Shown: positions 8,029 through 11,541, numbered from the stretch's first letter. The stretch: DNA of 19,197 nucleotides from a virus (IMGVR_UViG_2667527789_000020:1-19197); one strand, 5' to 3'. Made by a program: numbers and translations. The notes: generated from the letters alone by a model not told the origin.

Positions 8029-9039
8029 ATGGCCGCATTACCATACATGCAACTGTACATAGCTGATTACCTAGCTGACACCATGCATTTGTCCGCAGAG
8101 GAGCACGGTGCGTATTTGTTGCTGATGTTCAATTACTGGCAAACAGGGAAACCAATACCTAAAAACAGGCTGGCAAAAATTTCCCGTCTGACTAACGAGC
8201 GATGGGCTGATGTGGAACCATCCTTGCGGGAGTTTTTTTGCGATAACGGCGATGAATGGGTGCATCTTCGGATTGAGGAAGATCTGGCATCAGTCAGGGA
8301 AAAATTAACCAAAAAATCAGCCGCCGGAAAAGCATCTGTTCAGGCCAGAAGAAGCAGAAAGGAAGCATATGTTCAAACAAAACAAGAGAGAGATTTAACA
8401 GGCGTTCAAACAAATGTTGGTGTTGTGTTTGAACATGACGCAAACACAAAAGCAACTAATAAAGATACAGATCTAAAAGAATTAAACCCCACACATAACG
8501 TGCGTGAACGCGAGAGTATTCCGACCAGTGAGTCGCATGGTGCGCCGTTGCAGACAGCCGAACCTGAATACCTGGACGGCCTGAGCGAACCGATCGGGAA
8601 ATTTTCGATGACCACTGTCTGGCAGCCGTCGCCGGATTTTCGACAACGGGCAGCAGTGTGGGGTATGGCTCTGCCTGAGCCGGAATTTACACCTGCTGAG
8701 CTTGCCGCATTCCGGGATTACTGGATGGCGGAGGGGAAGGTTTTCACACAGGTTCAGTGGGAGCAGAAATTTGCCCGCCACGTGCAGCACGTCAGGGCAC
8801 AGGTAAAACCAGTCAGCAAGGGGGGAAGCCATGCAGCATCAGGTGGCACGGCATCACGGGCAATTCAGGAAATCCGGGCAGCACGCGAACAGTGGGAACG
8901 AGACAACGGATTTATCAGCAACGGAAACGGCCTGGAAGCTGTGGGAGCTTATGGGGGAGGTGTATTCGAACCGCTGGACTCAGAAGAACGGGGCCGCACC
9001 TTCGAAGCTCTGGATTGCCCAGATTGGTGCGATGACTGA
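8029..9039 (+). CDS. Replication initiation protein, YdaU-like (DUF1376 N-terminal domain, DnaT-like C-terminal region)
   Basis: ATG at 8029 preceded by GAGG with a 5-nt spacer; the six-frame ORF starts at a TTG at 7975. N-terminus YMQLYIADYLADTMHLSAEEHGAYLLLMFNYWQTG is the DUF1376 signature. C-terminal half (SMTTVWQPSPDFRQRAAVWG...FTPAELAAFRDYW) resembles DnaT-like domains. Confidence 0.7.
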   Translation: MAALPYMQLYIADYLADTMHLSAEEHGAYLLLMFNYWQTGKPIPKNRLAKISRLTNERWADVEPSLREFFCDNGDEWVHLRIEEDLASVREKLTKKSAAGKASVQARRSRKEAYVQTKQERDLTGVQTNVGVVFEHDANTKATNKDTDLKELNPTHNVRERESIPTSESHGAPLQTAEPEYLDGLSEPIGKFSMTTVWQPSPDFRQRAAVWGMALPEPEFTPAELAAFRDYWMAEGKVFTQVQWEQKFARHVQHVRAQVKPVSKGGSHAASGGTASRAIQEIRAAREQWERDNGFISNGNGLEAVGAYGGGVFEPLDSEERGRTFEALDCPDWCDD

Positions 9040-9493
9040 ACAGCAAATCCGGCAGGTCTGTCGTCAGTGCATGGACCGCTGCCGGGCGGGTGAAACGTGG
9101 CCCCCGGACCTGGCTGAGTTTGTTGCGCTGATTTCGGAGAGTGGGGCAAATCCATTTGGTCTTACGGTGGATGCCGTGATGGAAGAGTACCGGCGCTGGC
9201 GCAATGAATCCTGGCGATACGACGGGAGTGATAAATACCCGTGGCCACAGCCTGTGCTGTACCACATCTGCCTCGAAATGCGTACCAGAGGGATTGAGCG
9301 CCAGATGACGCAGGGTGAGTTAAAACGACTTGCGGAACGGCAACTGACGAAATGGGCAAAGCATGTTGGTAACGGGATGAGTGTTCCGCCAGTGCGACGA
9401 CAACTGGAAGGGGCGAAACACCCGAAAGGGCCAACGCCAATTGAATGGCTGAAACAGGAATACGAACGCCGGAAGGCAGCTGGTTTTATTTGA
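8831..9493 (+). CDS. Lambda P-like replication protein (helicase loader family)
   Basis: PPDLAEFVALISESGANPFGLTVDAVMEEYRRWRNE...DKYPWPQPVLYHICLEMRTRG...QGELKRLAERQL parallels lambda P (PSPGQFVAWCREE...GLPNVSELVDMVYEYCRKRG...ESYPWKSNAHYWL...TDAELRRKAADEL). ATG at 8831 has a strong SD (AAGGGGGGAAG) but overlaps the upstream gene by 209 bp in another frame. Alternative starts are 8951 and 9032. Confidence 0.6.
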   Translation: MQHQVARHHGQFRKSGQHANSGNETTDLSATETAWKLWELMGEVYSNRWTQKNGAAPSKLWIAQIGAMTEQQIRQVCRQCMDRCRAGETWPPDLAEFVALISESGANPFGLTVDAVMEEYRRWRNESWRYDGSDKYPWPQPVLYHICLEMRTRGIERQMTQGELKRLAERQLTKWAKHVGNGMSVPPVRRQLEGAKHPKGPTPIEWLKQEYERRKAAGFI

Positions 9494-10320: not shown

Positions 10321-10602
10321 ATGATACTCCGGCAGTGTGCGGGAACGATGACAGTCGAAAGCATCGGCAGTCTGATTGGCCGTAGTGGGGCTGCCGTCAG
10401 GACGAAAGCGCGGGAACTGGGTATCTGCATGATGTTACGGGGTGATTATCACCAGTCAGCCAAATGTTCACAGCGTGATATTGAGCTGGCGCGGCAACTG
10501 CATCAGCGTGGCGTACCCCGACGGGAAATTGCCGAAAAGTTTGGGATGAAGTTGGGCGCAGTGAATAACTACGTTTATTTCGACAGGAGGGTTCAGGCGT
10601 GA
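10321..10602 (+). CDS. Small HTH-domain protein
   Basis: Two HTH-like segments (TVESIGSLIGRSGAAVRTKARELGI and VPRREIAEKFGMKLGAVNNYV). Start is uncertain: GTG 10285 overlapping the upstream stop, ATG 10321 or ATG 10342, all with weak RBS. Confidence 0.5.
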   Translation: MILRQCAGTMTVESIGSLIGRSGAAVRTKARELGICMMLRGDYHQSAKCSQRDIELARQLHQRGVPRREIAEKFGMKLGAVNNYVYFDRRVQA

Positions 10603-10904
10603 GGGTGAGAATTTATATCGCCGGTCCGATGACGGGATATGAAAATTTCAACCGTGAGGCGTTTCACAGGGCGGAAGAAGCACTGAAACGGGAAGGGCAT
10701 ACCGTTTTAAACCCGGCAGTACTTCCGGACGGACTGACACAGCCACACTACATGGATATTTGCATGGCGATGATACGCTGCGTGGATGCGATTTACATGC
10801 TGAAAGGCTGGCAGCGGTCGGCAGGCGCTAAGGCAGAACTGGCACTGGCGGAGAAACTGGGACATGCGGTTATTTTCCAGGAGGCAACCAGTGAGAAAAA
10901 TTAA
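10599..10904 (+). CDS. DUF4406-family protein (nucleoside 2-deoxyribosyltransferase-like fold), 101 aa
   Basis: GTG start overlapping the upstream stop (GTGA), preceded by AGGAGG. N-terminal MRVRIYIAGPMTGYENFNREAF is the characteristic DUF4406 signature. Confidence 0.7.
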   Translation: MRVRIYIAGPMTGYENFNREAFHRAEEALKREGHTVLNPAVLPDGLTQPHYMDICMAMIRCVDAIYMLKGWQRSAGAKAELALAEKLGHAVIFQEATSEKN

Positions 10905-11541
10905 TTATCAGACGCTACGTGAGATAGCAAAACTGGCAACCCAGGGCGAATGGGTCGCATTCATTTCGCCGGGCACTGATACATATGCGGTGCATACGCC
11001 GGGGGATGAACGTTGCGGAGACATTATCAAATGGCCTGGCTTTGATGACCAGAAAAATGCAGAGAACAACGCAGAATTTATTGCAGCTTTCAACCCTGAA
11101 GTAGTACAGGCACTGCTGGATGAACGGGAAGCCCAAAGCAAACGTATTGCAGAGCTGGAAGCTAATCTTGTGGCGCTGGCGGCGGAGAATGCACTTGCTC
11201 GTAAAGCAGTTCAGGCATTCTGCGATGTTGTTGGCGACAACACCGAGGTTATCTGCGAGGAGGTTGGGAGAGATGGCGTTCTGGTTATTTTGGAGGCCAT
11301 GAAGGCAACAGGAAATATGCCAGCCACCGATGCTTTCCTGTCTGAAGTGCGGGCGCTGGGGGTGGATGCTGCTATAGAAGCTGCAAAAAATCTGGTGGCC
11401 CAAGAATATGAGTATAAGGATTTCAAAGCGGCGCAGAGTGATTGCTGTATGCACCCTGGTTCAGACCTGATAGGGAAGGTTGAAATGACTGAGTGGTTAG
11501 TTGACTTTGCTGCCCAGCTTCGCAAAGGAGTTCAGTCATGA
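10891..11541 (+). CDS. ead/Ea22-like family protein
   Basis: GTG start (AGGAGG, 6-nt spacer) giving VRKINYQTLREIAKLATQGEW..., the Ea22-like N-terminal motif, followed by a coiled-coil segment (AQSKRIAELEANLVALAAENALARKAV). The six-frame ORF begins upstream at 10864 inside the DUF4406 gene. Confidence 0.6.
   Translation: MRKINYQTLREIAKLATQGEWVAFISPGTDTYAVHTPGDERCGDIIKWPGFDDQKNAENNAEFIAAFNPEVVQALLDEREAQSKRIAELEANLVALAAENALARKAVQAFCDVVGDNTEVICEEVGRDGVLVILEAMKATGNMPATDAFLSEVRALGVDAAIEAAKNLVAQEYEYKDFKAAQSDCCMHPGSDLIGKVEMTEWLVDFAAQLRKGVQS

Follow-up and report, generated by a model that had tools for sequence, protein, structure and literature searches.

The question raised by this locus is where one replication gene ends and the next begins. 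In the stretch of viral DNA analysed here (IMGVR_UViG_2667527789_000020:1-19197; 19,197 nt, hereafter the window), the open reading frame (ORF) of a putative replication initiator and that of a lambda P-like helicase loader both remain open across positions 8831-9039, a 209-nt out-of-frame overlap, as an initial annotation of this DNA had proposed, in which the loader frame is shifted by +1. That annotation offered three options, namely that the two genes truly overlap, that the loader starts at a later ATG (8951 or 9032), or that an insertion or deletion (indel) has altered the 3' end of the initiator. We find the first to be the best supported of the three: the segment is likely to be a genuine, maintained dual-coding part of a Rac-like prophage replication module, with the loader read from ATG 8831 and the initiator to its TGA at 9037-9039. 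The features on which the argument turns are as follows.

8029..9039 (+): initiator or replisome-organizer coding sequence (CDS), 336 aa, with Pfam domains; the same 1011-nt CDS is annotated in RefSeq
8809..8853 (+): Gly/Ser-rich disordered linker of the initiator, with the proposed ribosome-binding site (RBS) and start codon of the P-like gene (residues 77-91 of the AlphaFold2 (AF2) model; predicted local distance difference test score (pLDDT) <50)
8818..8825 (+): Shine-Dalgarno (SD) sequence AAGGGGGG of the P-like gene, 5 nt 5' of ATG 8831, from anti-SD duplex energy
8831..9493 (+): lambda P-like helicase loader CDS, long form of 220 aa, the proposed true gene (Pfam, AF2 and fold match, conserved ORF, ATG and SD)
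8831..9039 (+): dual-coding overlap of 209 nt, initiator in frame 0 and P-like gene in frame +1 (open frames in the window; homologous overlap in 35 loci)
8831..8899 (+): 5' part of the overlap, selection on the initiator frame; the initiator reads linker and helix RAIQEIRAAREQWER, P an unconstrained disordered leader (residues 1-23)
8900..8920 (+): hand-over zone in which codon periodicity passes from initiator to P (sliding 7-codon windows)
8921..9036 (+): 3' part of the overlap, selection on the P frame; P reads the first domain II helices (AWKLWELMGEVYSNRWTQKNG...LWIAQIG), the initiator a disordered Gly-rich acidic tail
8951..8953 (+): internal ATG, Met41 of the loader; the PGAP start of a ~180-aa 'replication protein P' in other genera
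9032..9034 (+): internal ATG, Met68 of the loader, within ATGACTGA; the RefSeq/GenBank start in E. coli (462-nt CDS), rejected here as the main start
9037..9039 (+): initiator stop codon TGA (ORF list and sequence)

The arrangement recurs well beyond the window. For comparison, 37 species-level loci were fetched from across the Enterobacterales and indexed on the invariant motif WPPDLAEF. In 35 of the 37 the loader is overlapped, always in the same relative frame, by an initiator with a DnaT domain, and counted from the long ATG the overlaps measure 149-224 nt; these 35 loci comprise 14 lineages at <70% nucleotide identity and 23 at <80%. Neither coding frame contains a stop within the overlap (0 in 2388 codons), as compared with control densities of 0.043 and 0.054 stops per codon where the same two frames are non-coding. 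The loader frame is open for at least 80 codons upstream of the WPPDLAEF anchor and has an ATG 80-91 codons 5' of it, often with an in-frame stop directly before. Initiator homologues had been considered as possibly ending well before 8831, but all initiators linked to a P-like gene end 3' of the codon equivalent to 8951. The stop position is identical in 20 of the 35 loci and the remainder end 22-94 nt before the anchor, so that even a loader start at Met41 would leave an overlap of 56-125 nt. The same two-frame arrangement also occurs in 80 viral contigs, and the overlap locus is present in 1253 of 5426 complete E. coli genomes. Because it is kept in the 35 species loci and in this many E. 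coli genomes, an indel in the initiator 3' end is excluded as its origin; judged from sequence, the overlap is more than chance and not an artefact.

All three forward frames are open over the overlap in the window, the third as a 92-aa ORF (8757-9035, +). This ORF was rejected as a gene: its frame carries 0-6 stops per locus in the overlap across the 35 loci (121 in 2353 codons, or 0.051 per codon), and its openness in the window is therefore attributed to chance in a purine-rich, T-poor stretch. Repeats in the overlap consisted of just short two-copy chance matches.

Initiation signals point to ATG 8831. Upstream of 8921 the window offers just two canonical in-frame starts, ATG 8831 and GTG 8843, the latter being confined to the E. 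coli clade and lying 18 nt 3' of the SD, too far to serve. The strong SD that had been noted before ATG 8831 was borne out: AAGGGGGG at 8818-8825 gives an SD:anti-SD duplex of -11.0 kcal/mol in the window against a background median of -3.0 kcal/mol, the median for the long ATG in the 37 loci is -10.2 kcal/mol, and in 73% of these loci the energy falls outside the 5th percentile of the background. The SD of most lineages is GGAGG(T) at the same place, where the initiator reads GGA-GGT as Gly-Gly. The long A-T-G itself is kept, whereas the base before it may be c, a, t or g, so that the initiator has His, Asn, Tyr or Asp there. On sequence evidence, then, the downstream gene has an independent initiation signal inside the upstream ORF. 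No RNA structure that would sequester the RBS was found in 8780-8880 (minimum free energy -20.3 kcal/mol, shuffle mean -23.4 kcal/mol, z = +1.31).

Selection was examined by frame in 60 unique sequences of at least 60% identity, using a neighbour-joining tree and Fitch parsimony; ratios of nonsynonymous to synonymous changes (N/S) are parsimony counts.

8678-8830, initiator only, loader frame non-coding: loader N/S 335/84; initiator N/S 217/202
8834-8899: loader N/S 125/31; initiator N/S 75/81
8921-8950: loader N/S 25/44; initiator N/S 55/14
8951-9031: loader N/S 52/93; initiator N/S 125/20
9040-9490, loader only, initiator frame non-coding: loader N/S 327/708; initiator N/S 927/108

Substitutions peak at the third codon position of the initiator up to ~8900 and at that of the loader from ~8915, and sliding 7-codon windows are initiator-like to 8891-8911, mixed at 8900-8920 and P-like from 8909-8929 on. 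Each gene is constrained over a different part, the initiator over 8834-8899 and P over 8921-9031 (N/S 77/137), the other half of each resembling a non-coding frame in which openness alone is kept. Within 8921-8950, which lies 5' of ATG 8951, the P-frame N/S resembles that of 8951-9031 and of the P-only region, and this constraint together with the P periodicity indicates that the loader frame is translated upstream of ATG 8951. Openness of the initiator frame was assessed in contexts where a loader-synonymous T would stop the initiator: T occurs in 0 of 197 such contexts within the overlap and in 286 of 1003 identical contexts in the loader-only region (28.5%), a rate that predicts 56 premature stops in the overlap, where 0 were observed. 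By these counts the initiator tail is selected to remain open, with its amino-acid sequence barely constrained. The AF2 models of both proteins place the disordered segment of each over the constrained segment of the other, the P leader over the initiator helix and the initiator tail over P domain II.

The identity of the loader bears directly on where it begins. Pfam Phage_lambda_P (PF06992) matches residues 57-187 at 59.8 bits (gathering threshold 26), covering profile positions 30-161 of 162; lambda P itself is matched by this profile over residues 38-198. Similarity to lambda P thus begins before 9032, as the initial annotation had supposed, the match starting at residue 57 (nt 8999) with profile position 30, and by these coordinates profile position 1 would fall at about residue 28 of the 220-aa ORF (nt ~8912). 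A BLASTP comparison with lambda P gave 25% identity over 113 aligned positions and aligned residues 85-192 alone, which does not allow the N-terminus to be placed by sequence alone; Pfam coordinates and a fold search were used instead. An NCBIfam search with the loader returned no match, and so no curated start-defining model. The AF2 model of the 220-aa loader (pLDDT 77) has a disordered segment at residues 1-25 (pLDDT <50) followed by nine helices, and its first confident helix, residues 24-45, contains Met41. The top Foldseek matches were chains of lambda P in the DnaB-lambda P complex 9oa1, at probability 1.0 and with 219 columns aligned to chain Z, whose 230 residues are all resolved; a further top match was the crystal structure of lambda P domain III, 8v9s (TM 0.85). 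Lambda P consists of a disordered domain I (residues 1-29, the 'N-terminal lasso') and domains II (~30-119), III (~120-192) and IV (193-233) (PMC12661323). The long-form model reproduces the lambda P fold and its domain order, with disordered I, helical II and III and the C-terminal lasso helix, and runs co-linear with the 233 aa of lambda P, offset by ~10 residues, residue 1 corresponding to about lambda P residue 11. Judged by this model, a loader begun at Met41 would lose the greater part of helix 1 of domain II, and one begun at Met68 about half of the domain II equivalent. Profile and fold together assign the P-like protein to the Phage_lambda_P helicase-loader family, with DnaB loading and contact with the initiator as predicted functions.

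The upstream partner had been described as an 'O-like' initiator, a label that stands as a functional analogy but not as a statement of domain content. Its frame is open from 7975 and the biological start is ATG 8029, which RefSeq also uses for a 99.9% identical E. coli locus. The protein carries DUF1376 at residues 5-87 (nt 8041-8289; 90.5 bits against a Pfam threshold of 30.1) and a DnaT-like single-stranded DNA (ssDNA)-binding domain, PF17948, at residues 192-258 (nt 8602-8802; 62.6 bits against 25), followed by a lineage-specific C-terminal extension of 76 aa. The NCBIfam DnaT equivalog NF002770 scores 94.1 bits against a cut-off of 201 and aligns over profile positions 81-156 of 179 alone; by this measure the initiator contains a DnaT domain but is not a DnaT orthologue. 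A search of the initiator for PF04492 (Phage_rep_O) gave no match at E <= 0.01, lambda O itself scoring 123 bits. With a score below the DnaT cut-off and no lambda O domain, the protein is therefore regarded as analogous to O in function but outside the O family, and as a Rac ydaU-type 'phage replisome organizer'. Its C-terminal 152 residues were modelled with AF2 (pLDDT 66); the DnaT domain is confident, and is followed by the disordered linker (nt 8809-8853), a helix (nt 8851-8904, pLDDT ~58) and a disordered tail (nt 8908-9036, pLDDT ~40). The alignment behind this model is shallow, since the search for homologues of the C-terminus returned mostly partial proteins, and this limits confidence in the model.

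The helix and tail travel with the P-like loader. They are confined to initiators paired with such a loader: more distant DnaT-domain proteins (P0173, P0177, P0179) end soon after the domain; a YdaU of the K-12 Rac type (L122 757-1614) keeps the DUF1376 N-terminus and has another C-terminal half and a DnaC-like loader; and the mosaic initiators L002 903-2081 and L003 946-2061 carry unrelated N-terminal domains on the same cassette of DnaT domain, tail and P. The recombination joint between initiator types lies near window positions 8470-8560. This association is compatible with a role of helix and tail in loader recruitment.

We posit the following arrangement. The initiator would be translated to its own TGA at 9037-9039, and the loader independently, in the +1 frame of one shared mRNA, from ATG 8831 by way of the SD at 8818-8825. 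The loader RBS would thus be embedded in the flexible Gly/Ser linker of the initiator, and 209 nt would be read in two frames to give two functional products. From 8831 to ~8900 the initiator helix would constrain the DNA while P reads a disordered, freely evolving leader that is co-linear with lambda P domain I; from ~8915 to 9036 the first domain II helices of the loader would do so while the initiator reads a disordered, acidic, Gly-rich tail. Placement of the loader RBS inside the initiator ORF would also tie loader synthesis to translation of the initiator.

A more tentative extension, to which we give a low probability, is that the shared DNA encodes elements by which the two proteins recognise each other. 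On the initiator side it specifies the helix and tail seen with P-like loaders, and on the loader side the leader and first domain II helices, which correspond to a stretch of lambda P that lies apart from domains III and IV, the domains that grip DnaB; the two segments may meet at an interface. Were this so, the overlap would lock initiator-loader specificity into a unit that recombination cannot split within a mosaic module, and the loader RBS inside the initiator ORF would also set stoichiometry. In a variant of this idea, internal starts at Met41 and Met68 would give truncated regulatory isoforms of the loader.

Several observations weigh against a start at ATG 8831. The Met41 equivalent is nearly invariant (Met in 36 of 37 loci, Leu in L021), and an SD-like GGGAG precedes it in about half of the loci (median -5.5 kcal/mol). 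No constraint at the amino-acid level is seen in the first ~23 codons of the long form, where N/S (125/31) equals the non-coding 335/84, and the case for their translation is made by the open frame with its ATG and SD. RefSeq PGAP, like most phage records, gives the loader a shorter form. Finally, the loci are phylogenetically related, so that probabilities such as the ~0.17 chance per independent lineage that a 40-codon leader lacks a stop are approximate.

The conserved methionine, its partial SD and the unconstrained leader, together with the many database entries of ~180 aa, are also what favours the best surviving alternative, an unlikely one in our assessment, in which the loader starts at ATG 8951 (Met41) as a 180-aa protein, the overlap shrinks to 89 nt and the longer upstream ORF is fortuitous. 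Purifying selection and P periodicity are already present in 8921-8950, however, and an alignment of 38 loader homologues (43-91% identity) places the start of the conserved core at A36/W37 (AW.LWE.MGEIYSNRW..KNG), upstream of Met41 and far upstream of Met68. The AW.LW motif is conserved down to 43% identity and recurs in orphan genes where no initiator overlaps it. Met41 itself lies within a confident helix and is replaced by Leu in L021, and a start there would leave a conserved open frame, ATG and strong SD 40 codons upstream unexplained. In our view Met41 most likely belongs to the core of helix 1, though it may also serve as a secondary start.

The orphan P-like loader genes occur in Erwinia (L030 2492-3118 and L038 2507-3076), beside host genes (a ttcA-like gene and a PTS transporter). 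Within 2.5 kb there is neither an initiator nor any obvious sign of a prophage, and the genes may represent remnants or copies that have been domesticated. As overlap-free controls both keep the W.LW motif upstream of Met41, and they count as just weak evidence because their own starts are poorly supported (SD -2.8 and -5.6 kcal/mol).

A start at ATG 9032 (Met68), which would yield a 153-aa loader with an 8-nt overlap coupled to initiator termination, is very unlikely. The ATGACTGA sequence at 9032-9039, whose 8 nt hold both this ATG and the initiator stop, has the classic layout for termination-reinitiation and is restricted to the clade of Escherichia, Citrobacter, Enterobacter and Klebsiella; its ATG is the start annotated in RefSeq and GenBank. 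At the equivalent codon 10 of the 37 loci nevertheless lack ATG (one has TTG), the SD energy there of -3.1 kcal/mol equals background, and the Pfam match and strong P-frame conservation begin well upstream, the latter reaching at least 110 nt 5' of ATG 9032; a loader from Met68 would also lack roughly half of the lambda P domain II equivalent. The suggestion that P homologues might start at 9032 fails on the same counts, and conservation that reaches upstream of both internal ATGs speaks against 8951 and 9032 alike. In the clade that has it, ATGACTGA could yield a 153-aa, N-terminally truncated isoform, and beside the long form from ATG 8831 the loader may have an additional short form, made from Met41 or from Met68 by termination-reinitiation.

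Equally improbable is a programmed +1 ribosomal frameshift near 8900-8920 that would produce an initiator-loader fusion with no separate initiation. It would fit the +1 position of the loader in all loci and the hand-over of selection at 8900-8920, but inspection of the aligned translations, which was not a dedicated frameshift-site search, revealed no conserved slippery motif or in-frame stop, and the hand-over sequence varies between loci (GFISNG, GLDGDG, GAVSDG); the conserved ATG, SD and open leader would moreover be needless, and orphan loaders exist that have no initiator. Decay of cryptic prophages is common and two loci (L037, L040) do show disrupted loader genes, but a sequencing or mutational indel that extended the initiator ORF, or a module decaying to a pseudogene, has a negligible chance of explaining an arrangement that recurs in 80 viral contigs and 1253 complete E. 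coli genomes as well as in the 35 species loci, with stop avoidance, and with purifying selection on each frame over its own part of the overlap.

If the loader begins at ATG 8831, its current annotation requires revision. In E. coli, phage records and RefSeq PGAP place the start at the 9032-equivalent ATG (462 nt, 153 aa, 8-nt overlap) or later (423 nt), while PGAP in Salmonella, Citrobacter, Klebsiella, Pectobacterium and others uses the 8951 equivalent (~180 aa). The same gene is called at about 220, 180, 153 and 140 aa in the protein database, which shows that in practice annotators differ over its start; the long form (221 aa) is already present in some GenBank entries (P0002, P0003). RefSeq has very probably placed the start of 'replication protein P' 67 codons too late in E. 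coli and ~40 codons too late in other genera. Reference proteins would then lack 40-67 residues, including the first helices of the lambda P domain II equivalent, an omission that would mislead structural and functional work. Literature searches for the overlap or the module, incomplete in the literature they covered, found nothing specific and brought up no Ribo-seq or proteomics data. Long same-strand overlaps are well known in phages, and what is new here is a well-supported example together with a widespread misannotation of the start site. As a natural case of long (~150-220 nt) same-strand dual coding kept across the Enterobacterales, in which constraint passes sharply from one frame to the other and a disordered part of one protein coincides with a structured part of its partner, it offers a test case for methods that detect overlapping genes. 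That it joins an initiator to its own helicase loader raises the testable idea of coupled expression or specificity in mosaic prophage replication modules.

The early region around the overlap is Rac-like, with repressor, cro-like and YdaT-like genes followed by the initiator, the loader and a DUF1627 (ydaW-like) gene. In the part of the initiator gene that separates DUF1376 from the DnaT domain, an AT-rich dip at 8340-8520 (GC 0.38 against ~0.58 in the flanks) contains the inverted repeats ATGTTCAAACAAAACA / TGTTGTGTTTGAACAT (8369-8384 / 8421-8436) and a further pair at 8416-8431 / 8441-8456; on the model of ori-lambda inside O, this dip is put forward as a candidate origin of replication. 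Opposite the initiator and loader lie two antisense ORFs, 8482-8832 (-) and 8915-9265 (-), each of 116 aa and with open equivalents in L001-L003; they are most likely shadow ORFs arising from codon bias. Further downstream, ORF 10864-11541 (225 aa) overlaps ORF 10599-10904 (101 aa) by 41 nt (10864-10904), where the equivalent pair in the Rac-SA53 annotation overlaps by 14 nt, and this may be another question of start choice in the same operon. Two single-member database proteins fuse the P domain with a neighbour, P0106 (333 aa) with DUF1376 and P0032 (291 aa) with DUF1627. Both are probably frameshift or assembly artefacts at gene junctions, although P0106 could be a natural initiator-loader fusion. 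A record named Actinobacillus phage vB_Apl-pPE4 (L002, PP818812.1) has 87% DNA identity to the E. coli prophage module; such a match would not be expected with a Pasteurellaceae host, and an enterobacterial prophage, as a contaminant or after induction, may account for it.

Compared with known systems, the initiator shares with E. coli DnaT its ssDNA-binding domain and differs in its DUF1376 N-terminal domain and in the 76-aa C-terminal extension, both absent from DnaT, as well as in scoring below the equivalog cut-off. Same-strand overlaps in other phages, such as phiX174 A/B/K and D/E and lambda Rz/Rz1, likewise have one stretch of DNA read in two frames with partitioned constraint, and in overprinted genes generally a disordered or weakly constrained part of one protein lies over a constrained part of the other. 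Unlike those cases, the overlap described here is terminal between neighbours, with neither gene embedded in the other, it links two components of a single replication machine, and each gene is constrained over a different half. The gene order matches that of Rac ydaU-ydaV in E. coli of the K-12 type (dicA/racR-like repressor, ydaS/cro-like gene, ydaT, DUF1376 initiator, loader, ydaW (DUF1627)), and over its N-terminal ~150 aa the initiator shows 73% overall identity to K-12-type YdaU, the first 145 residues being nearly identical. YdaU has a different C-terminal half, however, followed by a 6-nt gap and a DnaC-like loader, whereas the DnaT-like domain, tail and P-like loader found here form an alternative cassette. 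The closest parallel in design is lambda O-P. There O (38686-39585) and P (39582-40283) overlap by 4 nt, compared with 209 nt here, and the present initiator has DUF1376 and a DnaT-like domain in place of PF04492. In both systems an initiator gene is directly followed by a P-family DnaB helicase loader, and the loader described here matches PF06992 and the lambda P structure co-linearly. Lambda O has an N-terminal part that binds ori and a C-terminal part that binds P; the present initiator is similarly modular, with an N-terminal domain that can be swapped and a C-terminal part that travels with its loader.

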